NCBI GenBank assembly: GCA_019348555.1
Contig: JAHWJH010000002.1
Coordinates: 1 to 49,611 of the forward strand
Direction of reading: 5' to 3'
Length of the DNA stretch: 49,611 nt
DNA from: Actinomycetota bacterium
Lineage (GTDB): Bacteria; Actinomycetota; Acidimicrobiia; Acidimicrobiales; CADCSY01
Within the stretch, counting starts at the first letter, position 1; each line of letters starts with the position of its first letter. A program made the position numbers and the translations under genes. Shown here piece after piece: positions 30,437-43,218 of the stretch. The notes beneath the pieces were generated by a model. That model was not told where the DNA came from and made no database searches. It saw nothing but the letters and a program-made list of their open reading frames with translations.

Positions 30437-31488
30437 GAGTGCTCGTCACCGGTGGCGCCGGGTTCGTAGGCTCTCGGGTCGTCACCGCCCTGGTCGAGCG
30501 TGGTGCCGACGTTCGCGTGCTCGACAGCCTCGATCCCGGCGTCCACGCCGTGGCTCCCGAGGTCGACGCCCGCGCCGAGCTGGTGGTGGGCGACGTCGCC
30601 GATCCCGCCGTGGCCGCCGCCGCCGTCGAGGACGTCGACGCCGTGTGTCACCAGGCGGCCAAGGTGGGCCTCGGCGTCGACTTCGGCGATGTGGGCGCCT
30701 ATGTGGCCGCCAACGACGTGGGGACGGCGAGCCTGCTCGGTGCCTTGTGGAGTCGGCGCTTCGACGGGCGCCTGGTGCTGGCCAGCAGCATGGTGGTCTA
30801 CGGGGAGGGCCGGTCGCGCTGCCCGCGCCACGGCCTGGTGGCGCCGGGCCCCCGGCGAGCGTCCGACCTCGACGCCGGGCGCTTCGACGCACCCTGCCCG
30901 CAGCCCGGCTGCGGGGAGACCGTGGAGGTGGCCGCGGTCACCGAGGACACCCCGGCCGACCCCCGCAACGTCTACGCCGCCACCAAGCTCCACCAGGAGC
31001 ACCTGTGCGCGCTGTGGGGTAGGGAGGCGGGCGCGTCGGTGGTGGCGCTGCGCTACCACAACGTCTACGGCCCGGGGATGCCGCGCGACACCCCCTACGC
31101 CGGCGTGGCCGCCATCTTCCTGTCGGCGCTGGCCCGGGGCCGGGCCCCCCAGGTCTTCGAGGACGGCGGCCAGACGCGCGACTTCATCCATGTCGACGAC
31201 GTGGCCCGGGCCAACGTGCTGGCCCTCACCGTCCCAGGTGCGGCCGGCGCCTACAACGTGGCCAGCGGCTCCCCCCACACCGTGTTGGACATGGCCGAGG
31301 CGCTGGCCCGGGCCACCGGCGGGGGTCTTCGACCCGAGGTCACCGGGCGATGGCGTGGCGGCGACGTCCGCCATGTCGTGGCCTCGCCACGCCGGGCCGT
31401 TGACCAGCTGGGGTTCGTCGCCGAGGTCGGCTTCGCCGAGGGCATGGCGGCGCTGGCGGCGTCGCCGCGCGCCCCCGCCGGGAGGTGA
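30433..31488 (+). CDS. NAD-dependent epimerase/dehydratase (extended SDR) with a Cys-rich insertion
   Basis: The GTG at 30433 overlaps the kinase stop (GTGA). VTGGAGFVGSRV and YAATKLHQE (Y-x3-K). The insertion is CPRHG...CPQPGCGE. Confidence 0.8.
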   Translation: MRVLVTGGAGFVGSRVVTALVERGADVRVLDSLDPGVHAVAPEVDARAELVVGDVADPAVAAAAVEDVDAVCHQAAKVGLGVDFGDVGAYVAANDVGTASLLGALWSRRFDGRLVLASSMVVYGEGRSRCPRHGLVAPGPRRASDLDAGRFDAPCPQPGCGETVEVAAVTEDTPADPRNVYAATKLHQEHLCALWGREAGASVVALRYHNVYGPGMPRDTPYAGVAAIFLSALARGRAPQVFEDGGQTRDFIHVDDVARANVLALTVPGAAGAYNVASGSPHTVLDMAEALARATGGGLRPEVTGRWRGGDVRHVVASPRRAVDQLGFVAEVGFAEGMAALAASPRAPAGR

Positions 31489-32987
31489 GCCGAGGCCCTC
31501 TCCGGGCAGCACCGGGCGTCCCGGCGGTGATCTTCCTCGCCGCCGCCGGTTGCGGCACGGCGCTCTCGGCGTCGATAGCCGCCGGTCCGCCTCTCCTCGA
31601 GGCACGCTGGCGCTTGCCGGCCCAACTCGCTCTGTGGGGCCTGGCGTGGGCCGTCGCCCTCGCCGCCGCCCTGCGACTGCCCACCCGTATGGCCCTGGTC
31701 CTGACGCTGGGCGCCGGGCTGGCGCTTCGGCTGGCCGCCCTGGCCGGGCCACCCACCACCTCGGACGACTTGTACCGCTACGCGTGGGACGCGCGGGTGC
31801 AGGCGACCGGCGTCAACCCCTACCTCCATCCTCCGGCCAGCGAGGAGCTGGCCGGTCTGCGGGAGCCCTGGCTGTGGCCCGACGACGCCGGGTGCGCCGA
31901 GCTCGACCGGCCGCCCGGGTGCACGAGGATGAACCGCCCGGCGGTGCCTACCATCTACCCCCCACTGGCGCAGGGTTGGTTCGTCGTGGTCGACACCTTC
32001 GCTCCCGGCGGCGGGCGTCACACCACCTGGCAGGTGGCCGGGCTGGTGACCGAGGTCGCCGTGCTGGTCCTGCTCCCGGTCGCCCTCGGCCGCTGGGGCG
32101 GCGACCGCCGCTGGAGCGCTCTGTACGCCCTGTCCCCGGGACCGGTGGTGGAGATCGTGCAGAACGGCCACGTGGACGGGCTGGCTGTCCTGCTCGTCGT
32201 GGGTGCCATGGTCCTCGTGGCCCCCCGTGAAGGCTCGTCCCGAGGGTCCCGCTCTCCGGGATGGCGCCACGTCGGTGCCGGTGCGCTCCTCGGCGCCGCC
32301 GCCATGGTGAAGCTCTACCCGGCGGTGATCCTGCTGGCGCTGGTGGGAGCCGGCACCGGCCGGCGCCTGACCGTCCTGGCCCGGGCCGGCGCCGGCGCCC
32401 TCGTCGTGGTCGTCGCCGGCTACCTGCCGCACGTGCTCGATGTGGGGTGGCGCCTGGTGGGCTACCTCCCGGGGTACCTGGCCGAGGAGGATTACCGCGA
32501 GGGGAGCCGGTTCCTGCTGGCGACGGCGCTGGGACTACCCCCGGCGGTGGCGGGGGCCGCCTCCGTGGCGGCGGTCCTCGGCGTGGCCGGCTGGGTCGTG
32601 GTCCGGCGACCCCCGCCCCCGGCGGGCGCAGCGGCCCTGCTGGGAGCCATGGTGTTGGCCGCCTCGCCGGTCCAGTCGTGGTACGCCGTCGTCCTGCTCG
32701 CCATGGCGACCATCGCCATCCAGCCGTGGTGGGCGGCCGTGGTGGTGGCCGGCCACCCGTACTACGTCGCCGTGTTGCTGGACCACCCCGACGCCACGAA
32801 CCTCGGCCGCCTCGCCTACGGCGCCGCCCTGGTGGCGGTGGTGGCCGGAGCCCTCAGCGCAGCTGCAGGTCGCCGTAGTCGACTTCCAGGTGCACCCGCT
32901 GCCGATCCAGCTCGGCCGCACCCTCCGACGGGTCCACGCCGACGCTGCCCGAGTAGCCCTCCGAGTGCAGGGCGGCGGTCCCGGTGA
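31485..32987 (+). CDS. GT87/DUF2029-family polytopic membrane glycosyltransferase (polyprenol-P-mannose-dependent mannosyltransferase-like)
   Basis: The GTG at 31485 overlaps the epimerase stop (GTGA). SDDLYRYAWDARVQATGVNPY, IYPPLAQ and AMVKLYPAVILL are typical of GT87. The last 45 codons or so overlap the convergent sigma gene and look non-native. Confidence 0.7.
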   Translation: MSRGPLRAAPGVPAVIFLAAAGCGTALSASIAAGPPLLEARWRLPAQLALWGLAWAVALAAALRLPTRMALVLTLGAGLALRLAALAGPPTTSDDLYRYAWDARVQATGVNPYLHPPASEELAGLREPWLWPDDAGCAELDRPPGCTRMNRPAVPTIYPPLAQGWFVVVDTFAPGGGRHTTWQVAGLVTEVAVLVLLPVALGRWGGDRRWSALYALSPGPVVEIVQNGHVDGLAVLLVVGAMVLVAPREGSSRGSRSPGWRHVGAGALLGAAAMVKLYPAVILLALVGAGTGRRLTVLARAGAGALVVVVAGYLPHVLDVGWRLVGYLPGYLAEEDYREGSRFLLATALGLPPAVAGAASVAAVLGVAGWVVVRRPPPPAGAAALLGAMVLAASPVQSWYAVVLLAMATIAIQPWWAAVVVAGHPYYVAVLLDHPDATNLGRLAYGAALVAVVAGALSAAAGRRSRLPGAPAADPARPHPPTGPRRRCPSSPPSAGRRSR

Positions 32988-34023
32988 GCTCGAGGCGCCG
33001 GCCCGGCGAGATCCGTTCGGGCGACTCACCCACGCCGGTGAGCTGGATCCACACCCGACCGTCGGCGCAGCCCAGCCAGAAGCCCTCGTTGGCGGGAACC
33101 GACTCGACGGGCAGGTCGTCGGCCTCGACCGGCCGTCCGCCGGACTCGGCGAGTCGGTCGGTCTCGGCGATCCCGACCCGGGACCCGTCCACGGTGAGGG
33201 TGCCCCCGCAGGCCGCCGGATCCCCGGAGCGAGCGACGAGGAGGACGGCCAGGGTGGCACCGGCGGCGGTGACCACCGTCGCCGTACGGGTTGGTCGTCG
33301 CCGCAGGCGGGTGCGCAGCCAGCGGGCCGACGCCGCAAGCGGCAGGAGCGGCCACACCGCCCGAAGCGGTCGTTGCCGCTCCAACAGGTCCTGGCTCAGT
33401 GCCGCGCAGCTCGGACACGCGAGCAGATGGCCGCCGGCGTCGAGCTCGCGCTGTCGCCGACGGTCGCCGGCGGAAAGGGCCATGAGCACGGGCCGACACG
33501 CCGGGGTCGGCGGCTGGACCCCGCCGAGGGCGAGGAGGTACTCGACCCGGAGCTTGGCTCGCGCCCGGAACAGGCGCAGGGATACGGCGCCGGACGAGGC
33601 CTGGAGCTCCCGAGCCAGTGAGGCGTTGTCCCTGCCCTCGACCTCACGGGCCACGAGGGTGGTGCGCTCGTCGTGGGAGAGCTGCCGCAGCGCCCTGCGC
33701 ACGGCCCTGCGCTCCTCGCTGGCCACCACCGCATCGTCCGGGCGCTCCGGCTGGGAGACGTCGGCCAAGCGGGGACCCAGACGCTCGCGGCGGTCCTCCG
33801 TGCGGCCCTCGGAGATGACCAGGTTTCGCGCCGACACCACCGCGTAGGCCAGCAGCGCCTCGCCTTCCAGCGACCGTCGGCACTCGAGGACGCGGGCGAG
33901 CGTCTCCTGCACGAGGTCGTCGACCCGGTGTGGATCGGCGACCCGGGCGGCGACGACCCGGCGGACGGCGGGCTCGAGGGCAGCGACGTCGGAGTCGCCT
34001 TCGTCCCGTTCCGAGGCGCTCAC
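32854..34023 (-). CDS. ECF sigma factor fused to a zinc-finger anti-sigma (ZAS) module, a transmembrane helix and an extracytoplasmic domain
   Basis: GTG at 34023 (the track ORF extends to 34137). Region 2 is DDLVQETLARV; region 4 is LSHDERTTLVAREVEGRDNASLARELQASSGAVSLRLFRARAKL. Then C-x25-HLLACPSC (H-x3-C-x2-C), the helix TATVVTAAGATLAVLLVA and a C-terminal domain of about 130 aa. No stop codon separates the modules. Confidence 0.75.
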   Translation of the reverse strand: MSASERDEGDSDVAALEPAVRRVVAARVADPHRVDDLVQETLARVLECRRSLEGEALLAYAVVSARNLVISEGRTEDRRERLGPRLADVSQPERPDDAVVASEERRAVRRALRQLSHDERTTLVAREVEGRDNASLARELQASSGAVSLRLFRARAKLRVEYLLALGGVQPPTPACRPVLMALSAGDRRRQRELDAGGHLLACPSCAALSQDLLERQRPLRAVWPLLPLAASARWLRTRLRRRPTRTATVVTAAGATLAVLLVARSGDPAACGGTLTVDGSRVGIAETDRLAESGGRPVEADDLPVESVPANEGFWLGCADGRVWIQLTGVGESPERISPGRRLELTGTAALHSEGYSGSVGVDPSEGAAELDRQRVHLEVDYGDLQLR

Positions 34024-34080
34024 GACGACTCGACCCCGGAGATCGGTCCGGTCCCGAGAGGACGAGGAGGAGCGGCCCGC

Positions 34081-34178
34081 GTAACGAAGTCGGTTCTCGT
34101 GCGTTTCATGGAGTGGAGGTGTCAGCGCCCGCCACACGGGGAGGGTAGGTCATGCAGCCCGAGCGAGGAGCAGGATGA
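34081..34178 (+). promoter_or_regulatory. Conserved intergenic element, copy A: ECF-type promoter motif, leader, strong Shine-Dalgarno sequence and 8-codon uORF
   Basis: GTAAC (34081-85), 16 nt, CGTTT (34102-06). The reverse strand reads TGAAAC, 16 nt, CGTTAC. A 22-nt block (34096-34117) is identical to 42832-42853. GGGGAGGG lies 6 nt before the ATG at 34152 (MQPERGAG, stop at 34176-78). Confidence 0.55.
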
Positions 34179-34254
34179 CCCCCACATCGCAGGCCAGGAT
34201 CGAGGCCCTCGTCGGCCCGAATCAAACGTGCTCGATCGGCACGGGTGGCCGGTG

Positions 34255-34707
34255 ATGCCGGGCACTCCGGGCCACAACGCTGCAGGCGACGACAGGTCCG
34301 TCTCCGAGCTCCTCGCCGACATGAGCAATCAGGTCAAGCTCCTCATCAGCAAGGAGGTGGAGCTGGCCAAGCTGGAGGTCAAGGACCAGGCCGCCAAGGC
34401 CTCCAAGGCCGGGGCGCTGCTGGCGGCGACCGGGGTGGCTGCGCTCTTCGGACTGTTGTTGGTGTCGTTCGCGGCGGCATGGGGCCTGGCCGCGGTGATC
34501 CCCACCGGCTTCGCCTTCCTCGTCGTCGGCGTGGTGTTCCTCGGGGTCGCCGCGGTGTTGCTCGGCAAAGGACGAAAGCAACTGGCCGAGGTCAGCCCCG
34601 CTCCCGATCAGGCCATCGCCAGCGTGAAGGACGACGTCCAGGTGGCCAAGGCGGCACTGTCGCGAGGGGCGAACCGCCCGATGGGCACTCCTGGGAGCCG
34701 GAGCTGA
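34255..34707 (+). CDS. Holin-X/DUF1469 family membrane protein (annotated 'phage holin family' in databases)
   Basis: Last 150 codons of track ORF 33673..34707 (ATG at 34255; GTG at 34252). SELLADMSNQVKLLISKEVELAKLEVKDQAAKASKAG is followed by two helices, as is typical of the actinobacterial DUF1469 family. Confidence 0.7.
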   Translation: MPGTPGHNAAGDDRSVSELLADMSNQVKLLISKEVELAKLEVKDQAAKASKAGALLAATGVAALFGLLLVSFAAAWGLAAVIPTGFAFLVVGVVFLGVAAVLLGKGRKQLAEVSPAPDQAIASVKDDVQVAKAALSRGANRPMGTPGSRS

Positions 34708-34708
34708 C

Positions 34709-35560
34709 ATGGGCTCGGACACCGAGGCGCTGACGCGGGACATCCGGCGGGCCCGTGCCGATCTGGCCACCACCCTCGAGGCCGTGGGCGACCGGATCGC
34801 CCCCAAGAAGGTGGTGGCGAGGGCCAAGGCCGACGTCGCCGAGCGGGTCGAGAACGTCCGCGAGCGAGTGAGCCCCACCCGCATGCTCGAGCGGCGGACC
34901 GAGGGGCTTCGTTCGGCCGTCGGCAACATCCAGGGTTTCGTGACCGAGAGGAAGGAAGACGTGGCCAGGAGCGACGGGTCGGAGCAAGGTCGGCTGCCGC
35001 AGCTGACCGGGACCGTGCGAGCACAGTCTCGGCGCCTGGCAGAGCGCACCGGCGATGTGACCGGCACGGTTGCCGGTGGCGCGCGGCGGGCGCCGGTCAG
35101 CCTTCGGGACCAGGCCGGCGACCATCCCTTCGTCGCCGGCCTCGTGGCTCTGGGGGGAGGCGCCCTGCTGGCCTCCCTGGTGGCGCCGTCGGACCGTGAG
35201 CGAAAGCTCGCCAGGCAGGTCAAGGAGAACGCGCAGCCGGTGAAGGACCAGGCCATCGAGGCCGGACGAAGCGTCGCCGACGAGATGCAACAGGCCGCCC
35301 AGGACCGTACCGAGCAGGTCAAGAAGCAGGCCCGCAAGGCAGCCGGAGAGGTCAAGCAGCAAGCCAGCGCCTCGACGCAGCGCACCAAGGGCCAGGCCAA
35401 GAAGGCGGCAACCCAGGTGAAGCGTCAGACCAAGGCGGCGACCAGCCAGGTCAAGGCCGAGGCAAAGCGCCCCTCGACCTCCGCCCCGGCCAGGACGACG
35501 ACCAAGGCGAAGGCCGGGCGGTCGGCGCCGGCGAAGAAGGTCGTCGCCCCCCGCCGTTGA
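34709..35560 (+). CDS. DUF3618 domain protein with a Lys/Ala/Gln-rich C-terminal tail
   Basis: 283 aa. TEALTRDIRRARADLATTLEAVGDRIAPKKV is the DUF3618 signature. It has a central helix (FVAGLVALGGGALLASLV) and a basic repetitive tail (KKQARKAAGEVKQQA...KKAATQVKRQTKAATSQVK). Confidence 0.7.
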   Translation: MGSDTEALTRDIRRARADLATTLEAVGDRIAPKKVVARAKADVAERVENVRERVSPTRMLERRTEGLRSAVGNIQGFVTERKEDVARSDGSEQGRLPQLTGTVRAQSRRLAERTGDVTGTVAGGARRAPVSLRDQAGDHPFVAGLVALGGGALLASLVAPSDRERKLARQVKENAQPVKDQAIEAGRSVADEMQQAAQDRTEQVKKQARKAAGEVKQQASASTQRTKGQAKKAATQVKRQTKAATSQVKAEAKRPSTSAPARTTTKAKAGRSAPAKKVVAPRR

Positions 35561-35606
35561 AGCACGACATCACCCACAGCAGACCCCACTACGACAGGAG
35601 CGACAG

Positions 35607-36365
35607 ATGCCCCAGCTCAGCTTCGAAGACGTCCAGCCCATGATCGACGCCAACCTCCTCGACGCCGAAGGCAGCAAGGTGGGCAAGATCGAGGACATCT
35701 ACCTCGACAACGACACCCAGGAGCCGGCATGGGCCCTGGTCCACACCGGCCTGTTGGGCCGCAAGCTCAACTACGTCCCGCTCAAGGGGGCCAGCGTCTC
35801 CGGCGACTCCCTGCAAGCTGCCTACCCCGAGGCCCAGATCAAGGACGCCCCCAGCATCGATCCCGACGTGGAGATCACCCCCGAGGAGGAGGCGCAGCTC
35901 TACCGGCACTACGGCGTGGATGCCGAGCCCCGGGTCCTGCACGCCGGTGACGTCGAGGCGGCGGCTGAACCCGACACCGGGCACGACACCAGCGGTCCCA
36001 CCACCGACGACGCCATGACCCGCTCCGAGGAGCAGCTGCAGGTCGGCACCGTGCGCCGACCCTCCTCGCTCGTGCGGCTGAAGAAGTACATCGTGACCGA
36101 GAACGTCCAGATGACCGTTCCGGTCCAGCGTGAGGAGGTCCGGGTGGTGCGTGAGCCGGTCACCGACGCCAACGTCGGCGCGGCGACGTCCGGACCGGAC
36201 CTCTCGGAGGAAGAGCACGAGATGACCCTGATGGAGGAGCAGGTGGTGGTCGACAAGCAGGTCGTTCCCAAGGAGCGGGTGCGCCTCGACAAGAGCGTCA
36301 ACGTCGACGAGGAGGTCGTCTCCGAGGAGGTGCGCAAGGAGCAGATCGACCTTGAGCAGCAGTAG
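35607..36365 (+). CDS. PRC-barrel plus DUF2382 (YsnF/AvaK-like) stress-response protein
   Basis: 252 aa. GSKVGKIEDIYLDNDTQEPAWALV (PRC barrel) and EEQLQVGTV...VRLKKYIVTENVQMTVPVQREEVRVVREP...EEQVVVDKQVVPKERVRL (DUF2382 repeats). AGGAG lies upstream. Confidence 0.75.
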   Translation: MPQLSFEDVQPMIDANLLDAEGSKVGKIEDIYLDNDTQEPAWALVHTGLLGRKLNYVPLKGASVSGDSLQAAYPEAQIKDAPSIDPDVEITPEEEAQLYRHYGVDAEPRVLHAGDVEAAAEPDTGHDTSGPTTDDAMTRSEEQLQVGTVRRPSSLVRLKKYIVTENVQMTVPVQREEVRVVREPVTDANVGAATSGPDLSEEEHEMTLMEEQVVVDKQVVPKERVRLDKSVNVDEEVVSEEVRKEQIDLEQQ

Positions 36366-36439
36366 GCCTGCCACCCCGCCGGAAGCCTCCTCTCCGTCGA
36401 CGCCCGTCGACCGCGAGCTTCCGTGGAGGAGGTGTCCCG

Positions 36440-36877
36440 ATGGTGCGGCTGGGCATCGCCGAGGCGAACTCGCGCTGTCTGGTGACCGTCCAGGGTGAGC
36501 TGAATCGACACGCCGGCCAGTGGTTGCGGGAGCATCTGGTGGCCCTCGCCACGCGCGGGTGCCGGCAGGTCCTGGTCGACCTGAGGGAGACGACGTTCAT
36601 CGACTCATCGGGACTGAGCGTCCTGATCGGGGCCATGGAGGGTATGGAGGACCTCGGGGGGCAGCTCGTCCTGCGGGCTCCGCCCGCCGGGGTCTACGAG
36701 GAGGGTCGAGTGCGCAGGCTCGGGGAGCTCATGGCCATCGTCGACGATGCCGTCGACGAGGCCGCGGCCATCGAGCGGTTGAGCACGTTGTTCACGGCCG
36801 GAGACCTCGAAGAACCGGGGACCGACGTGCAGAACTGGATCTACCGGGATGGAGGAGCATCCGTCGAGCCGGGATGA
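36440..36877 (+). CDS. STAS-domain protein (anti-sigma-factor antagonist-like)
   Basis: 145 aa. LVTVQGELNRHAGQWLREHL, VLVDLRETTFIDSSGLSVLIGA. GGAGGAGG lies upstream. Confidence 0.75.
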   Translation: MVRLGIAEANSRCLVTVQGELNRHAGQWLREHLVALATRGCRQVLVDLRETTFIDSSGLSVLIGAMEGMEDLGGQLVLRAPPAGVYEEGRVRRLGELMAIVDDAVDEAAAIERLSTLFTAGDLEEPGTDVQNWIYRDGGASVEPG

Positions 36878-36910
36878 ACCAACACCAAACCGAAGCGGAG
36901 AGGGGGAGGC

Positions 36911-37969
36911 GTGCCCGAGAGCGATGAGGAATGGCGCAGGCGCTGGGCCGAGATGATCGAGCGAGAGGGCGGGGACACCCGAGTGATCGGTCACCCGCAA
37001 CAGGTTCCGGAGTCGAGCGATGGCGGTGACGCCGAGCACCGCGCCCCGGAGAAGCCGACGGATCTGCAGAAGCCGGCGTTGGGAGGCGTCCTGAAGCGCA
37101 CGGCGCGGGAGTTCAAGGAGGACAACGTCACCGACTGGGCGGCGGCGCTCACCTATTACGGCGTGCTCGCCATCTTCCCGGCCCTCCTCGCCCTCGTCTC
37201 GGTGGTGGGGCTCCTGGGCCAGTCCGCCACCCAGGTGCTCATCGACAATCTCGGGAAGGTGGCGCCGGGCCCGGCGAAGGAGATCTTCACCACCGCCATC
37301 GAGAACCTGCAGCAGAGCCAGGGTGCGGCGGGGGTCCTCTTCGTCGTCGGCCTCGCCGCCGCACTGTGGTCGGCGTCCGGCTATGTCGCCGCCTTCATGC
37401 GCGCCTCGAACGCCATCTACGACGTCGAAGAGGGGAGGCCGTTCTGGAAGACCGGTCCGGTTCGACTGGGCGTGACGCTGGTCATGCTCGTGTTGCTGGC
37501 GATCAGCGCCCTTGCCGTGGTGCTCACCGGGGGGCTGGCTGACCAGGTGGGCCGACTGCTCGGCCTCGGTACGACGGTGGTCACCGTCTGGGATGTCGCC
37601 AAGTGGCCGGTGCTGCTGGTGATCGTCAGCCTGATGTTCGCCATCTTGTACTGGGCCTCGCCCAACGTCAGGCAGCCGGGCTTCCGCTGGCTCAGCCCCG
37701 GCGGTCTGCTGGCGGTGGTCGTGTGGTTGCTCGCTTCGGCGGCGTTCGCCTTCTACGTCGCCAACTTCGGCTCCTACAACAAGACCTATGGCGCGCTCGG
37801 CGGCGTGATCGTGTTCCTGGTATGGCTGTGGATCTCCAACATCGCCGTGCTCCTCGGCGCGGAGTTCAATGCCGAGCTCGAGCGAGGGCGCCAGATCGAG
37901 GCGGGCCACCCAGCGGATCAAGAGCCGTTCCTCGAGCCGCGCGACACCCGGAAGATGAATCGAGGATGA
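36911..37969 (+). CDS. YihY/BrkB family membrane protein
   Basis: 352 aa. LKRTAREFKEDNVTDWAAALTYYGVLAIFPALLALVSVVGLL, YGALGGVIVFLVWLWISNIAVLLGAEFNAE. Confidence 0.85.
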   Translation: MPESDEEWRRRWAEMIEREGGDTRVIGHPQQVPESSDGGDAEHRAPEKPTDLQKPALGGVLKRTAREFKEDNVTDWAAALTYYGVLAIFPALLALVSVVGLLGQSATQVLIDNLGKVAPGPAKEIFTTAIENLQQSQGAAGVLFVVGLAAALWSASGYVAAFMRASNAIYDVEEGRPFWKTGPVRLGVTLVMLVLLAISALAVVLTGGLADQVGRLLGLGTTVVTVWDVAKWPVLLVIVSLMFAILYWASPNVRQPGFRWLSPGGLLAVVVWLLASAAFAFYVANFGSYNKTYGALGGVIVFLVWLWISNIAVLLGAEFNAELERGRQIEAGHPADQEPFLEPRDTRKMNRG

Positions 37970-38039
37970 GCAACTCGTCCTCCCAACACACCAACATGCC
38001 CAGCTCGATGAGCGGGTCATCTCGCTATGGAGGTCAACA

Positions 38040-38828
38040 ATGAGTCTCGTCGCAGCAGTGGAGCTGAGCCGTGGCATCGAAGAGGCATGGGCCAACGTGG
38101 CGGCTTTTTTTCCGAAGTTCGTCGCGTTCCTCCTCATTCTGGTCGTCGGCATCTTCATCGCCAAGGCCCTGGCCAAAGCAGCCGACAAAATCCTCGAGCG
38201 GGTCGGATTCGACCAGGCGGTCGAGCGAGGCGGTGTAAAGCAGGCATTGTCGAAGTCGCAGTACGACGCCAGTGACATCGTCGGCAAGATCATCTACTAC
38301 GCCTTGGTCCTCTTCGTGCTCCAGTTCGCATTCGGCGTCTTCGGGCCCAACCCGGTTTCGGACCTGATCACCGGCGTGATCGGCTTTCTCCCCAGGGTCT
38401 TTGCCGCCATCGTCATCGTGGTGGTAGGCGCTGCCATCGCCGCTGCGGTGAAGGAGTTGCTCGAAGCGGCCCTCGGCGGTCTCAGCTATGGCAAGGCGCT
38501 CGCCGTGTCGGCCTCGGTCGCCATCCTCACCGTGGCCGGCTTCGCCGCCCTGAGCCAGCTCCGGATCGCCCCGGCCATCGTGAACGGTCTGTTCTATGCC
38601 TTGCTGGCCATCGTGGTCGGCTCGGCCGTCATCGCCATCGGCGGCGGTGGCATCCAGCCCATGCGCAGCAAGTGGGAACAGGCCCTGGGGAAGCTCGAGG
38701 AGGAGTCGCAGGCCGTGCGCCGGGAGAGCGCAGGAGCCGGTGAACGCATCCAAGGGCGGATGGAGCAGCGCACGTCGCAGCTCAGCACCTCCGAGGGCAC
38801 TTCCGAGCGACCACTTCGAGCTCAGTAG
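38040..38828 (+). CDS. Membrane protein with repeated 'conserved TM helix' motifs (PF05552-like)
   Basis: 262 aa. The ATG follows GGAGG. Four helix repeats (FVAFLLILVVGIFIAKALAKAA, IIYYALVLFVLQFAF, VFAAIVIVVVGAAIAAAVKELL, LLAIVVGSAVIAIGGG) and a polar tail. G+C is visibly lower than in neighbouring genes. Confidence 0.65.
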   Translation: MSLVAAVELSRGIEEAWANVAAFFPKFVAFLLILVVGIFIAKALAKAADKILERVGFDQAVERGGVKQALSKSQYDASDIVGKIIYYALVLFVLQFAFGVFGPNPVSDLITGVIGFLPRVFAAIVIVVVGAAIAAAVKELLEAALGGLSYGKALAVSASVAILTVAGFAALSQLRIAPAIVNGLFYALLAIVVGSAVIAIGGGGIQPMRSKWEQALGKLEEESQAVRRESAGAGERIQGRMEQRTSQLSTSEGTSERPLRAQ

Positions 38829-38831
38829 TCA

Positions 38832-38897
38832 GCCGGTGCACGGCGAAGGTGCCAGACGATGAGCGACACGGTGAAGGAACGACGCCGTGCAGCCGGC
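38832..38897 (+). other. Long-stem hairpin between the TM-helix gene and ppm1
   Basis: GCCGGTGCACGGCG (38832-45) pairs with CGCCGTGCAGCCGGC (38883-97): 14 bp with one bulged G and a 37-nt loop. It may be a terminator or attenuator; this is not proven. Confidence 0.3.
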
Positions 38898-38926
38898 GCG
38901 ACCGCGGCACCGTCGCATGCGGTGCG

Positions 38927-39781
38927 GTGAGACGCACCCTGGTCGTCCTGCCGACCTACCTCGAGGCCGACAACCTGGAGGAGGTCCTCCGGCGACTGCG
39001 GGCGGCGGTACCGGCTGCCGACGTGTTGGTGATCGACGACTCGAGCCCCGACGGCACCGCCCAGGTGGCGAAGGCGGTGGGCGAAGAGCTCGGCCGGGTG
39101 GAAGTGTGGGTCAGGCCGGGGAAGGCGGGGCTCGGGAGCGCCTACCGGGACGGCTTCCGGCAGGGCCTGACCCGGGGCTACGAGGTGTTGGTGGAGATGG
39201 ACAGCGACCTCTCGCACGACCCGGCGGCACTGCCGGCACTGATCGCCGCCATCGACCAGGGGGCGGCACTGGTGATCGGCTCCCGGTACGTCCCCGGAGG
39301 GCGCATCCCGAACTGGTCGCTCTACCGGCGGTTGCTGTCTCGCTTCGGGAACCGCTACGCCGCCCGACTGTTGCGCCTCGACGTGGCCGACGCCACCTCG
39401 GGCTTTCGCGCCTACGACGGCGCCACCCTCGGCCGGCTCGACCTCAGCGCCGTCCGGGCGGACGGCTACGGCTTCCAGATCGAGATGGCCCATCGGATCT
39501 CCCGCCTCGGCGGTGGGGTGGTCGAGCTGCCCATCGACTTCGTCGAGCGCCATCGTGGGACCTCCAAGATGTCGTTGCCGATCGTGATCGAGGCGTTCGT
39601 GCTGGTCACCCGCCGTGGGCTGGGCCAGCGGCTGCAGAGCGTCGTGCGGGCGATCAGTCGCACGACTCCACGAGCTGCCTTCGGCCGCCGGGTGACGCCG
39701 GTAGGTGCAGATCGCGTACAGTGCAGCGGTACCGGAAACGTCCCTCTACACCTTTCAGGAAAGGACGCACCTCTACGATGA
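38927..39781 (+). CDS. ppm1: Polyprenol-monophosphomannose synthase (GT2, Ppm1/DPM1-like)
   Basis: GTG at 38927 (VRRTLVVLPTYLEADN); the track ORF starts at 38849. VIDDSSPDGT, EMDSDLSHDP, GSRYVPGG, TSGFRAY. The last 25 codons or so run through DNA homologous to the non-coding leader of the second lipoprotein copy. Confidence 0.85.
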   Translation: MRRTLVVLPTYLEADNLEEVLRRLRAAVPAADVLVIDDSSPDGTAQVAKAVGEELGRVEVWVRPGKAGLGSAYRDGFRQGLTRGYEVLVEMDSDLSHDPAALPALIAAIDQGAALVIGSRYVPGGRIPNWSLYRRLLSRFGNRYAARLLRLDVADATSGFRAYDGATLGRLDLSAVRADGYGFQIEMAHRISRLGGGVVELPIDFVERHRGTSKMSLPIVIEAFVLVTRRGLGQRLQSVVRAISRTTPRAAFGRRVTPVGADRVQCSGTGNVPLHLSGKDAPLR

Positions 39782-40035
39782 ACTCCCTTTGGAAGAAGGC
39801 CGCCGTAGGACTGATCGTCACCGGATTCTCGCTCGGAGCCACTGCCTGCGACGGTGACGGGGAAGGCACGGTGGAGGTGACCGAGACCGAGTTGGAGACC
39901 GAGCTCGAGATCGAGACCGAGACCGAGACCCAGACCCTCGAGCCGACCGAGACCGAGACCGAGACCGAGACCGAAGAGGTCGCCACCGAGACCGGCACCA
40001 TCACCGAGACAGAAACCGAGTTCCAGCCTCGGTAG
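39778..40035 (+). CDS. 85-aa lipoprotein with a highly acidic Thr/Glu-repeat mature region (copy 1)
   Basis: The ATG at 39778 overlaps the ppm1 stop (ATGA). The signal peptide and lipobox are MNSLWKKAAVGLIVTGFSLGATAC. The mature 61 aa contain 21 Glu, 2 Asp, 19 Thr and one basic residue (hand count): ...TETELETELEIETETETQTLEPTETETETETEE... Confidence 0.75.
   Translation: MNSLWKKAAVGLIVTGFSLGATACDGDGEGTVEVTETELETELEIETETETQTLEPTETETETETEEVATETGTITETETEFQPR
39946..39969 (+). repeat. In-frame hexanucleotide tandem repeat (ACCGAG)x4 inside lipoprotein gene copy 1
   Basis: Four perfect ACCGAG units, followed by the degenerate unit ACCGAA. They encode TETETETE. Further degenerate GAGACC units span about 39880-40020. 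Confidence 0.9.
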
Positions 40036-40169
40036 ATCGGTCCGCCGGCGCGGCGACCAGCCCCTCCTCCACTGCGGCCGTCCCCGGCGGGTCCACCACG
40101 GGTGCGCCGGACGGGGCTGAAGGCGGGCCCGCCCGGCGCTCGCATCGGAATGGCGGGTCCCGCCTCGGG

Positions 40170-41492
40170 TTGCTCGTGCCCGTGGCCCTCATCGTCATCG
40201 CCGCCTGTCTGCGCTTCGTCAACCTCGCCGAGCCACCCCGCCTCTACTTCGACGAGGTCTTCTACGCCAACGACGCCCGGTCCATGCTGGAGACCGGGGT
40301 GGAGGTGGATCGCCCGGCTCATCCCCCCGTCGGGAAGTGGCTCATCGCCGTCGGCATCGCCGTCATCGGCTTCGAGCCCCTGGGCTGGCGGTTGGCGAGC
40401 GCCACCGCCGGCACGCTGACGGTCCTCGTCACCTACTTCGCCGCATGGCGGTTGTTCCGCTGCCGGTGGCCGGCGGCGCTGGCGGCGCTGCTCGTCGCAT
40501 TCGACGGACTGGCGCTGACCATGAGCAGGATCGCCATGCTCGACGTCTTCGTGGGGCTGTTCATCGTCACCGGCTTCTGGCTCGTCGCCGTGGCGCTCGA
40601 CGACCGGCGATCGCCAGGTCGCTGTCTGGCCCTCGCCGGCATTGCCTTCGGGCTGGGCGTCGCCACCAAGTGGTCGGCGGTCTTCGCCCTGGTCACGGCC
40701 CTCGCCGTGGTCCTCGTGTCGCAGCTCCGGCAGGCCCGACGTAACCGCGCCGGAGGGCGTGCGATGGCCCGCGGCGTGGGTGTGGCGGCACTGTGCCTGG
40801 GGGTGCTGCCCATCGCCGTCTATGTGCTCGGCTACACGGGTTGGTTCGCCAACTACCACCACTCCGACGCCGGCCGTGACCGGTGCCCGGAGGGAGGCTG
40901 TGACGTCGGGATGACCGAGCGGGCACGGGTGTGGTGGGAGGAGCAGCTCGAGCTGGTGGACTACCACCAGCGCTTGCCGACGACGCATCCCTACCGCTCC
41001 TCGGCCACCACCTGGCCGCTGATGACCCGCCCGGTCCTGTACTACTTCGAGCGCTGCACGAACGAGCAGGTCCAAGCCGGTGAGCCCTGTGCCGTCGGCG
41101 TGGGCAACCGAGCCAAGATCCTGGGCCTCGGCAACCCCGTGGTGTGGTGGACCGGCCTCCTCGCCTACCCGGTGGTCGCCTGGTCGGCGCTCGTCCGCCG
41201 CCGCCGCTCCGCGCTCGCCCTCCTGGTGTTCCTCCTCGGCCAGTACGTGCCGTGGCTGCTGGTCGGCAAGGACGGCTACTTCTTCTATGCCACGCCTCTC
41301 GTCCCTTTCGTGGCCATGAGCGTCGCCCATCTCTGCATCCGGGCGGACGCGTCGAGGCGACTGCGGTGGTTGCCGGGCGGAGTCGCCGGGCTGGCTCTGG
41401 TGGCGCTCGTGTACTTCCTGCCAATCTGGTCAGGCGTCGAGCTGCCCCGGTCGGTGCTCGAAGCGCGCATGTGGCTGGACTCTTGGCGCTGA
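40170..41492 (+). CDS. pmt: Protein O-mannosyltransferase (GT39, actinobacterial Pmt)
   Basis: 440 aa. YFDEVFYANDA (DE motif in loop 1), HPPVGKWLIAVG, GWRLASA, ATKWSA and HPYRSSATTWPLM. The start is uncertain (TTG at 40170, GTG at 40176 or 40182). Confidence 0.85.
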   Translation: MLVPVALIVIAACLRFVNLAEPPRLYFDEVFYANDARSMLETGVEVDRPAHPPVGKWLIAVGIAVIGFEPLGWRLASATAGTLTVLVTYFAAWRLFRCRWPAALAALLVAFDGLALTMSRIAMLDVFVGLFIVTGFWLVAVALDDRRSPGRCLALAGIAFGLGVATKWSAVFALVTALAVVLVSQLRQARRNRAGGRAMARGVGVAALCLGVLPIAVYVLGYTGWFANYHHSDAGRDRCPEGGCDVGMTERARVWWEEQLELVDYHQRLPTTHPYRSSATTWPLMTRPVLYYFERCTNEQVQAGEPCAVGVGNRAKILGLGNPVVWWTGLLAYPVVAWSALVRRRRSALALLVFLLGQYVPWLLVGKDGYFFYATPLVPFVAMSVAHLCIRADASRRLRWLPGGVAGLALVALVYFLPIWSGVELPRSVLEARMWLDSWR

Positions 41493-42790
41493 GGCGCCGA
41501 GGTGGTCGCCGGCGGCCCGATCCCAGGCCCTCGAAGTGAGGCGACGATGATCCAGACCAGGGCGGCGGCGCGGAGGGCGACGGCCACCCCGAGCAGCCCA
41601 TAGTCGAGCGGTGGCTCCTCCCCGGCTCGCCCCCCCAGGTAGGCGAACTCGGCGGCGAACACGGCCAGGTCGGCGACGACGAAGACGGCGAACGGGGCTA
41701 CCCGGGGAAGGAGGAGGGCGAGCAGGGGGATCAGCCACAGGTCGTACTGCGGCGAGAACACCTTGTTGGTCACGAGGAACCAGGCGAGCAGCGGCAGCAG
41801 CAGCGTCCAGGTCGTCGCCGGGCGGCGCCGTCTGAGGCCGATGGCGAGCACGACCAGGGCGCCGGCGGCGAATGCCAGGGCGCTGGCGCGGTTGAGCGCC
41901 TGGCGGTCGAGGGCCACGCCACCGAGCTGGTCAGCCACCGCCCAGAGCGTGGACCAGCTGGCGCCCCGCTCGCGATTCACCTCGAAGAAGCGGCTCCACC
42001 CTTCCGGAGCGACGAAGGCCAGGGGGACGTTCACCGCCGCCCAGGCCACAGCGGCGCCGGCGATGTGGTGGCCGGCGGCGCGCCAGTTCCGCTGGCGCAG
42101 GCGCGCAGCCACGACCAGCGGGACGAGCAGGACGGGAAACAGCTTGGCGGCGGCGCCGAGCCCCGCCGCCACGCCGGCCGCCCCATCCCGCCCGTCCACG
42201 TGCAGAGCGACGGCGAGCACGGTGAGCAGCACCGGGAGCGGGTCCCAGTTCAAGGAGGCGTAGAGGACCAGAGGTGGCGCCCCCGCCCACCACAACTGCC
42301 TGCTGGTGGGCAGCTTCAACCGCCGCAGGATGAACAGGGTGGCCACCACGAACGCTGCGTTGAGCCCTGCATTGAGGTTGTAGAAGACCAGAACGCCGCC
42401 GCCCCAGGCCCTGGTGACCAGCGCCGTGGACCACATCTGCAGACCGATCAGGGGTGGGTACTCGAGCGGCTGATCGATGTAGGGGATGCGCCCGTCGGCG
42501 AGACCTCGGCCCGACCACAAGGCGACCAGGTCGCTGTAGCAATACTGGCGGAACTGCTCCCCGCCTTCCCAGCCCCCGTCGAAGATGCAGTGGCCCTTCG
42601 ACCACCAGCCGAGCACGAGGGCAACCCCGACGACTGCCAACGGGGCCCCACCGACGCGGCGATCGCGCTGTTCGGAACCATCCGACCTGGCCGCCTCCGA
42701 CGTTCCGCGCTTCAGCGACAGGCTCGGACGCGGCACAGTCCGGCGAGGATAGCGAGGGCGCCTTCGCCGCCTGAGGGGCTCCTCCCTCAC
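41285..42790 (-). CDS. GT87/DUF2029-family polytopic membrane glycosyltransferase (second, divergent paralogue)
   Basis: 501 aa. CYSDLVALWSGRGLADGRIPYIDQPLEYPPLIG and AAKLFPVLLV are typical of GT87. The C-terminal 70 aa or so are antisense to pmt and look non-native. The GTG start at 42790 is uncertain. Confidence 0.7.
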   Translation of the reverse strand: MREEPLRRRRRPRYPRRTVPRPSLSLKRGTSEAARSDGSEQRDRRVGGAPLAVVGVALVLGWWSKGHCIFDGGWEGGEQFRQYCYSDLVALWSGRGLADGRIPYIDQPLEYPPLIGLQMWSTALVTRAWGGGVLVFYNLNAGLNAAFVVATLFILRRLKLPTSRQLWWAGAPPLVLYASLNWDPLPVLLTVLAVALHVDGRDGAAGVAAGLGAAAKLFPVLLVPLVVAARLRQRNWRAAGHHIAGAAVAWAAVNVPLAFVAPEGWSRFFEVNRERGASWSTLWAVADQLGGVALDRQALNRASALAFAAGALVVLAIGLRRRRPATTWTLLLPLLAWFLVTNKVFSPQYDLWLIPLLALLLPRVAPFAVFVVADLAVFAAEFAYLGGRAGEEPPLDYGLLGVAVALRAAALVWIIVASLRGPGIGPPATTSAPQRQESSHMRASSTDRGSSTPDQIGRKYTSATRASPATPPGNHRSRLDASARMQRWATLMATKGTRGVA

Positions 42791-42816
42791 CGCATCGGCC
42801 AGGGAAGGTCGGCCGC

Positions 42817-42948
42817 GTAACCGATCCGCACCTCGTGCGTTTCATGGAGTGGAAGGGTGTCAACGCCCACCACGGGGGAGGGTGTGCCATGCCGCCTGAG
42901 CGGGTGTCGGGAGTGAGCGGTACGAGAACCTCTCGCCGTACTTCTTGA
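42817..42948 (+). promoter_or_regulatory. Conserved intergenic element, copy B: ECF-type promoter motif, leader, strong Shine-Dalgarno sequence and 19-codon uORF
   Basis: GTAAC (42817-21), 16 nt, CGTTT (42838-42). The reverse strand reads TGAAAC, 16 nt, GGTTAC. GGGGGAGGG lies 6 nt before the ATG at 42889 (MPPERVSGVSGTRTSRRTS, stop at 42946-48, 12 nt before the lipoprotein ATG). Confidence 0.55.
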
Positions 42949-42960
42949 AAGGACTCGATC

Positions 42961-43218
42961 ATGAACTCGTTCTGGAACAAGGCCGCCGTGGGCGTGCTCG
43001 CCGCCGGCCTCTCGCTGGGGGCCACCGCCTGCGACGGGGACGGCGAAGGCACGGTCGAGGTGACCGAGACCGAACTGGACACCGAGCTCGAGATCGAGAC
43101 CGAGACCGCCACGGAGACCGTGGAGCCGACCGAGACCGAGACCGAGACGGTGACCGAAGAGGTCGCCACCGAGACCGGCACCATCACCGAGACGGAGACG
43201 GAGTTCCAGCCCCGGTAG
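42961..43218 (+). CDS. 85-aa Thr/Glu-repeat lipoprotein (copy 2)
   Basis: MNSFWNKAAVGVLAAGLSLGATAC followed by DGDGEGTVEVTETELDTELEIETETATETVEPTETETETVTEEVATETGTITETETEFQPR. By manual alignment, 73 of 85 residues are identical to copy 1. Confidence 0.8.
   Translation: MNSFWNKAAVGVLAAGLSLGATACDGDGEGTVEVTETELDTELEIETETATETVEPTETETETVTEEVATETGTITETETEFQPR
43129..43146 (+). repeat. In-frame (ACCGAG)x3 tandem repeat inside lipoprotein gene copy 2
   Basis: Three perfect units. The unit that is perfect in copy 1 reads ACGGTG here. Confidence 0.9.

Follow-up and report, generated by a model that had tools for sequence, protein, structure and literature searches.

The window analysed here is a 49,611-nucleotide (nt) stretch of contig JAHWJH010000002.1 (assembly GCA_019348555.1) from an uncultured lineage of Acidimicrobiales (Actinomycetota). 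It carries a block of about 100 nt in two copies, both on the plus strand, which in alignment extend from about 34077 to 34180 (copy A) and from about 42813 to 42925 (copy B). Copy A lies upstream of, and divergent from, the gene of a sigma factor of the extracytoplasmic function (ECF) type that carries a fused ZAS anti-sigma motif, and points at a stress/envelope operon; copy B points at the gene of a small Thr/Glu-rich lipoprotein. Each copy consists of a promoter-like core, a leader with a Shine-Dalgarno sequence and a short upstream open reading frame (uORF). Judged from sequence comparison, the repeated element most probably serves as target promoter for the adjoining, putatively membrane-tethered sigma factor.

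The repeated element and its linkage to a sigma gene

For comparison, the contigs of twelve sigma homologues were examined over 10 kb on either side of the sigma gene, using an nhmmer profile of the element together with regular expressions. Loci with a sigma factor 69-93% identical are referred to as the near clade, and four loci (L035, L037, L038 and L040) with a sigma factor 44-48% identical as the distant loci. The sigma gene and the parts of the two copies are the following.

32854-34023, minus strand: ECF sigma factor of 389 aa with a fused ZAS anti-sigma motif (Pfam Sigma70_r2 and r4_2; NCBIfam sigma70-ECF)
34079-34085, plus strand: copy A, -35-like box GCGTAAC; GCGTAA is invariant in 12/12 near-clade copies and in 3/4 distant sigma loci (L040 has GCGTCA)
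34086-34101, plus strand: copy A, spacer of 16 nt; the length is fixed in all 16 distinct sites
34102-34107, plus strand: copy A, -10-like box CGTTTC; every site has CGTT unchanged
34108-34151, plus strand: copy A, non-coding leader; mean pairwise identity 0.65, against 0.30-0.39 in the flanks
34115-34121, plus strand: purine box GGAGGTG of the copy A leader
34125-34135, plus strand: C-rich box GCGCCCGCCAC of the copy A leader
34138-34146, plus strand: copy A, Shine-Dalgarno sequence GGGGAGGGT, with the ATG at 34152
34152-34178, plus strand: copy A, uORF of 8 codons, MQPERGAG and stop; the stop overlaps the next ATG (ATGA)
42815-42843, plus strand: copy B, promoter-like core GCGTAAC-N16-CGTTTC, an exact motif match (boxes 42815-42821 and 42838-42843)
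42844-42888, plus strand: copy B, leader, 82% identical to the copy A leader; Shine-Dalgarno sequence GGGGGAGGGT at 42874-42883
42889-42948, plus strand: copy B, uORF of 19 codons, MPPERVSGVSGTRTSRRTS and stop; 8 codons in the close relative L006

A 22-mer, CTCGTGCGTTTCATGGAGTGGA, occurs at exactly two places in the window, 34096-34117 and 42832-42853, and with up to three mismatches there are still two matches, against 0.00 expected from 100 shuffles. An earlier note on this DNA had aligned the two copies and had pointed to this identical 22-mer, to GTAAC-N16-CGTTT in both, and to a similar segment (the G/C-rich leader) followed by a strong Shine-Dalgarno sequence and ATG; rechecked against the window, these claims hold, and the core takes the fuller form GCGTAAC-N16-CGTTTC. 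Between copies A and B the promoter boxes have an identity of 0.76, the leader one of 0.82 and the uORF one of 0.57, compared to 0.29-0.41 in the flanks, and the similarity ends at the block edges. When the window was searched for further motif sites with up to two mismatches, the two copies and one chance-level match were recovered and nothing else. A look-alike, GCGTAC-N19-CGTCCC, is found at 39704-39734 upstream of a paralogous lipoprotein gene; its spacer is 2 nt over length, and it may be a decayed or non-functional site. A mobile element was rejected as an explanation of the block: terminal inverted repeats and target duplications were not seen by eye, and the boundaries vary among lineages.

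The element is present in near-clade relatives, as the reading of the earlier note requires. In L001, L002, L003, L004, L006, L008, L009 and L025 a full copy stands directly before the sigma gene and faces away from it, and of 15 distinct loci 13 have the motif next to the gene of the ECF sigma/anti-sigma fusion. The orientation at the sigma loci is constant, GCGTAA being the box nearer to the sigma gene and CGTTYC the one farther away, and the consensus GCGTAAY-N16-CGTTYC keeps identical spacing in 16 distinct sites. Mean pairwise identity among seven lineages is 0.32 in the 35 nt upstream, 0.81 in the boxes and spacer, 0.65 in the leader and 0.55 in the uORF, falling to 0.39 and then to 0.30 farther downstream; conservation runs on into the plus-side leader and stops abruptly on the sigma side. 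These values indicate that the block is under selection and contradict an equal divergence of core and flanks, which the earlier note would have taken as the sign of a local duplication without constraint.

At the distant loci the boxes with their 16-nt spacing are placed and oriented toward the sigma gene just as in the near clade (GCGTAAT-N16-CGTTTCAGT in L035 and L037, GCGTAAT-N16-CGTTCCAGT in L038, GCGTCAT-N16-CGTTTCAGT in L040), with a spacer and leader unrelated to those of the window. The last 6 nt of the copy A spacer, CTCGTG, are conserved in the near clade only. At L035:5835-5891 and L037:4865-4921 (minus strand) the leader that follows the motif includes a hairpin, GACGCC-loop-GGCGTC; the loops differ between the two genomes, the z-scores are -1.3 and -2.1, and the hairpin precedes the Shine-Dalgarno sequence of a PRC/DUF2382 gene.

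Beyond these contigs, 185,579 species-representative genomes were scanned with a pattern of 18 specified bases. Four of the 20 matches were real, all of them on contigs of metagenome-assembled genomes from Acidimicrobiales/Actinomycetota; the others were chance matches in unrelated phyla. A metagenome scan with the full-element pattern gave three matches, all false. With four real contigs from the genome scan and no true copy from the metagenome scan, the element is rare.

The sigma protein has Pfam matches to sigma regions 2 and 4 only, followed by an HxxxCxxC ZAS motif, then by a hydrophobic segment and last by a C-terminal domain that is conserved. Its DNA-binding segments in regions 2 and 4 are conserved across the same loci as the boxes, the distant ones included. 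In 11 homologues (46-75% identity) the ZAS pattern C-x22-H-x3-C-x2-C (C176, H199, C203 and C206) and a C-terminal block, ANEGFW...W.QL..ES, are invariant. The hydrophobic stretch TVVTAAGATLAVLLVA, a putative transmembrane helix, and the C-terminal block, putatively extracytoplasmic, are visible in the sigma alignment. The C-terminal domain has no Pfam match, and neither a proline-rich nor a carbohydrate-binding module was found in it. NCBIfam assigns the sigma factor only to superfamily level, and the closest solved structure is that of M. tuberculosis SigL (E = 7e-8). We presume that this fusion protein is the cognate regulator of the element.

Leader, short open reading frame and candidate target genes

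The Shine-Dalgarno sequence and start codon, AGGGT-N2-G-N2-ATG, are invariant in 12/12 copies. The uORF has 8 codons in 8 of the 12 copies, and in 7 its stop overlaps the start of the next gene, orfX, as ATGA; the overlap is lost in copy B and in three A-type copies, in which the Shine-Dalgarno sequence and ATG are kept. The peptide itself varies freely among genomes (MQPERGAG, MGHEGGAG, MPRARRAG, MRRQRGGR, MGQKAGPE), and the conserved leader peptide suggested by the earlier note from a shared N-terminus is thus not borne out. The leader is non-coding, because 1-nt indels separate near-identical copies, namely the pairs L001A/L002A, copy A/L006A and copy B/L006B. A coding leader, in a frame continuous with orfX from a GTG at GTGCGCCC, was rejected on account of these indels, and the window lineage has no start codon at that position. 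Leader and mini-ORF together could form an efficient ribosome-loading site with translational coupling.

The genes on the plus side of copy A, and the two neighbours of copy B, are listed below.

34175-34255, plus strand: orfX stub of 26 codons, MTPTSQARIEALVGPNQTCSIGTGGR and stop; it shares ATGA with the uORF stop at its start, and TGATG with the holin-X start at its end
34255-34707, plus strand: holin-X (Pfam)
34709-35560, plus strand: DUF3618 (Pfam)
35607-36365, plus strand: PRC/DUF2382 (Pfam)
36440-36877, plus strand: STAS (Pfam)
36911-37969, plus strand: BrkB (Pfam)
38040-38828, plus strand: mechanosensitive-channel protein (MS-channel; Pfam)
41285 to about 42700, minus strand: GT87 glycosyltransferase, divergent neighbour of copy B; the start lies within 42655-42790
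42961-43218, plus strand: Thr/Glu-rich lipoprotein of 85 aa, with a signal peptide followed by GATAC/D (the slash marks the boundary); downstream target of copy B, from the open reading frame and its translation

The same stress/envelope genes as at 34255-38828 are found on the plus side of the element in relatives. The earlier note had the element drive an operon starting at 34255; the element is indeed oriented toward the operon, but the start is not directly at 34255, as the orfX stub (34175-34255) intervenes. In L001, L002 and L025 the same start opens a full-length orfX protein of 194-206 aa, beginning MT(A/P)..RR(S/T)EALVAR.., for which no Pfam family scored above its curated threshold. 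The window ORF is an N-terminal remnant of orfX.

Copies away from the sigma gene point at the T/E-rich lipoprotein gene in three lineages. In L006 a second copy, the orthologue of copy B, stands before the lipoprotein gene, and the second copy of L008 (L008B) is placed likewise. In L003 a variant, ACGTAAC-N16-CGTTGT (CGTTGTAGT; CGTTGTAGTAGGYGACGACCATCC), occurs twice on the minus strand (L003:14987-15060 and L003:18098-18170) as a nearly identical block of about 85 nt whose leader is unlike that of the window copies. One block lies upstream of a T/E-rich lipoprotein gene and the other upstream of an MS-channel/DUF2382/orfX/holin-X/DUF3618 operon, the same two target classes as those of copies A and B; the stress-operon copy of L003 is not sigma-adjacent. 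Neither L008B nor the L003 lipoprotein copy has a divergent gene on its other side. Copy B is 90% identical to L006B and 75% identical to copy A, and L008B is 74-76% identical to A-type copies of other genomes versus 63% to copy B. The likeness of copies A and B, together with the L003 pair, indicates that, within a genome, a single promoter block is repeatedly found before both the stress operon and the lipoprotein gene, and this sharing could have arisen via repeated copying or gene conversion.

No copy of the element accompanies the paralogous lipoprotein gene at 39778-40035. The region 38849-43218 resembles a protein-O-mannosylation system, with GT2, PMT (40170-41492) and GT87 genes, the PMT and GT87 ORFs overlapping convergently by about 200 nt; a further GT87 lies at 31485-32987. 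The two 85-aa Thr/Glu-rich lipoproteins in this cluster look like candidate glycosylation substrates.

The proposed ECF promoter and competing explanations

The observations on which the interpretation builds are the motif with its fixed spacing and orientation, a conservation beyond that of the flanks, the linkage to the sigma gene, the two target classes and the invariant Shine-Dalgarno sequence and ATG. A cognate promoter is argued for because two short boxes at rigid spacing outlive diverged surroundings and track one sigma family. We consider it fairly probable that the element is a promoter-plus-leader cassette, in which a plus-strand ECF promoter read by the adjacent sigma factor is followed by the leader and mini-ORF. 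The first 29 bp, GCGTAAY-N16-CGTTYC, would serve as the promoter, with GTAAC/T as the -35 and CGTT as the -10 element, and RNA polymerase carrying the adjacent sigma factor would recognise this core. By analogy, the sigma factor may be held inactive until its putative membrane/extracytoplasmic extension is cleaved or inactivated. Active sigma factor would then direct transcription of the holin-X/DUF3618/DUF2382/STAS/BrkB/MS-channel operon from copy A, with a predicted start at about 34112-34116, and of the Thr/Glu-rich lipoprotein gene from copy B. The transcript would begin with an unstructured, purine-rich leader of about 40 nt ending in a near-perfect Shine-Dalgarno sequence and the ATG of the mini-ORF, typically of 8 codons, whose stop overlaps the next start (ATGA); this arrangement is predicted to load ribosomes efficiently and to couple translation.

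A promoter scan found no sigma-70-type promoter in either intergenic region, and a terminator scan of both regions found no plus-strand terminator. The sole terminator look-alike, a minus-strand stem-loop with a T-rich tail at 34227-34243, lies inside the orfX stub and faces the element; it is probably a chance match.

Several points weigh against the cassette. The motif is missing at two sigma loci, L033, which has another gene context, and L036. In the latter (L036:560-640; sigma 72% identical) the GCGTAA and CGTTTC boxes are lost while part of the leader, ..GCCCACC..AAGGGTATGCCATGG, is kept; there a palindromic CCATGG is called as the sigma start, giving a 415-aa protein (P0010) that is probably over-long. 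The last -35 base, the sole variable core base in the plus reading, differs among 15 sites, of which eight have C, six T and one A, and L040 has CAT in place of AAx. AAC/AAT degeneracy is known for sigmaH-type promoters. The sample is small and drawn from a narrow clade, with 12 full copies that are distinct and four distant sites, the transcription start and the sigma dependence are predicted from sequence, and the Shine-Dalgarno sequence alone does not account for the conservation of the near-clade leader. Furthermore, the first plus-side gene changes among loci (holin-X, DUF2382, BrkB, MS-channel, GAF-ANTAR) while the motif stays at the sigma gene, a pattern that a motif serving the sigma gene itself should produce too.

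This last pattern, with the motif kept at the sigma gene in 13/15 loci, bears on a possible though doubtful alternative, in which the quasi-palindromic 29 bp (GTAACG...CGTTTCA) are read both ways, the sigma factor autoregulating its own gene and activating the divergent stress operon. A slightly more tentative version has one shared, mutually exclusive site, in which the -35 of one reading is the -10 of the other and the mini-uORF adds a translational layer on the operon side. The earlier note called the minus-strand reading a textbook autoregulatory promoter, and half of this stands: its -35, (C/A)TGAAACG, matches the best-conserved parts of the element, and TGAAAC belongs to the classical ECF -35 sequences. 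The -10 does not follow, as CGTTAC is present in only 6 of 16 distinct sites and the other ten have CATTAC (L003A, L004A, L008B, L038), GATTAC (L035, L037), GGTTAC (copy B, L006B), CTTTAC (L006A) or CATGAC (L040). The distance from motif to sigma start (18-97 nt) is compatible with a 5' untranslated region, no other conserved motif lies in between, and a GT87 gene lies divergently beside copy B, both in the window and in L006, as well as beside one L003 variant copy. On the other hand, L008B and the L003 lipoprotein copy keep the motif without a minus-side gene, and L036 retains its sigma gene without the motif. Because genes lie on both sides, context cannot decide the direction at sigma-adjacent sites; sites away from the sigma gene that point at targets imply that the plus direction works alone. 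We therefore favour the plus over the minus direction on the basis of these distal sites, the invariant CGTT and the leader-side conservation.

The remaining alternatives concern the leader or deny the element a function. It is improbable that AGGGTA(T/G/C) is the -10 of a second, sigmaB/sigmaF-type promoter (GTTT-N15-GGGTAY), and not, or not only, a Shine-Dalgarno sequence; equally improbable is its corollary, that transcription starts inside the "uORF", which would be illusory, with ribosomes first binding at GGAGCAGG-ATG of orfX. All 12 copies have GGGT(A/G), and the alignment has GTGC, GTTT, GTTG or GTGT exactly 15 nt upstream in 8/12; however, a true GTTT is present in 1/12 and the weaker forms (GTGC, GTTG or GTGT) in 7/12, the window lineage has CAGC or CAAC, and GTTT-N13-18-GGGTA has no match in the window. 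DUF2382/YsnF-like, YtxH-like and STAS genes are typical general-stress genes, and L036 kept its GGGTA box after losing the ECF boxes; against this, the ATG 5 nt past the box is itself invariant, which a -10 element does not need, and the distant sigma loci lack the GGGTA box. At L004:1586-1610 (plus strand) GTTT-N15-GGGTAC stands directly before an RsbW-like HATPase_c_2 gene, a look-alike of canonical sigmaB/sigmaF-type form that suggests a partner-switching stress sigma system in the clade. Less probable again is a structured RNA acting in cis, be it riboswitch, thermometer or a switch sequestering the Shine-Dalgarno sequence, or else a leader-peptide attenuator. The leader is conserved well above its flanks, and RNAalifold proposes a weak pairing of GC..ACC.C with GGGT..GC that covers the Shine-Dalgarno sequence, but the consensus energy is -3.2 kcal/mol with zero compensatory pairs, and a sequestering helix was rejected for want of covariation. 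Window-lineage copies can form a GUGG/CCAC plus GGUG/CGCC hairpin; the GTGG...CCAC hairpin, which the earlier note had proposed as a conserved RNA, is 61% paired against a shuffled mean of 60.5%, with equal values in slid controls and no covariation, and is not supported. Minimum free energy z-scores of near-clade leaders range from -0.87 to +1.35 relative to dinucleotide shuffles, and Rfam has no relevant match for the window at gathering score, nor for the element at a relaxed threshold (E<=1). For attenuation, no plus-strand terminator follows the leader and the uORF peptide is not conserved. Least credible of all is a functionless, decaying trace of local duplication. Within-genome copies are indeed alike, copy B being nearest to copy A barring its orthologue L006B and the two L003 variant copies being nearly identical, but conservation peaks sharply on two boxes at fixed spacing, the motif is kept across sigma homologues down to 44% identity, flanks are unalignable, and the same two target classes recur in three lineages.

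Relation to known systems and significance

The element resembles actinobacterial ECF (group 4) promoters in its AAC/AAT and (C)GTT cores, its rigid 16-nt spacer, its place beside an ECF gene and its reuse at envelope/stress genes. Actinobacterial sigmaD-type promoters have a -35 of GTAAC(A/G) and a -10 of GAT, and sigmaH/sigmaE-type promoters a -35 of GGAA(T/C) and a -10 of GTT; in C. glutamicum, sigmaD uses the former -35, and sigmaH the latter -35 and -10 (PMC6338062). Unlike either, the element is a hybrid of a sigmaD-like GTAAC -35 and a sigmaH/E-like CGTT -10, with an invariant GC in front. The system also differs from sigmaD and sigmaH in having a putative sigma/ZAS/membrane fusion in place of a free sigma factor with a separate anti-sigma factor, and in belonging to an uncultured Acidimicrobiales lineage.

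Fused C-terminal ZAS and transmembrane extensions are described for ECF48, ECF52 and ECF53 (for example SCO4117), for which activation by proteolysis has been predicted and positive autoregulation suggested (PMC8999054, PMC5826349). The window sigma factor shares with these actinobacterial groups the order of sigma2 and sigma4, HxxxCxxC, hydrophobic segment and a putatively extracytoplasmic C-terminal domain, a likeness of architecture. The group to which it belongs may thus be among or near these. In the literature covered, with the supplement of the reclassification paper outside its scope, the only predicted promoter motif for ECF48, ECF52 or ECF53 was that proposed for SCO4117, CSGYN-17 bp-SRHA, which is unrelated to the motif of the window.

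Symmetric bidirectional sigma-70 promoters have overlapping symmetric -10 elements of the housekeeping sigma factor (PMC10268837, PMC12825309). The element is like them in being a pseudo-symmetric sequence between divergent genes that could bind RNA polymerase either way; it is unlike them in that the -35 of one reading is the -10 of the other, the sigma factor is of the ECF type, and conservation supports the second direction in its -35 but not in its -10. The short ORF, as predicted from sequence, resembles translationally coupled mini-uORFs with its strong Shine-Dalgarno sequence, very short frame, non-conserved peptide and stop/start overlap.

The element would otherwise be a conventional regulatory element, and only the bidirectional reading, if true, would be conceptually new. 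Experiments have done little to define which promoters fused ECF groups act on, and the present analysis provides a promoter motif open to testing and a first predicted regulon, of two members, for a clade of sigma/anti-sigma fusions in uncultured Acidimicrobiales, consisting of an envelope-stress operon (holin-X to MS-channel) and a Thr/Glu-rich lipoprotein in a protein-O-mannosylation-like cluster. In several lineages the promoter-plus-leader block has apparently been copied or homogenised between the same two targets, which would represent growth of a regulon by promoter duplication.

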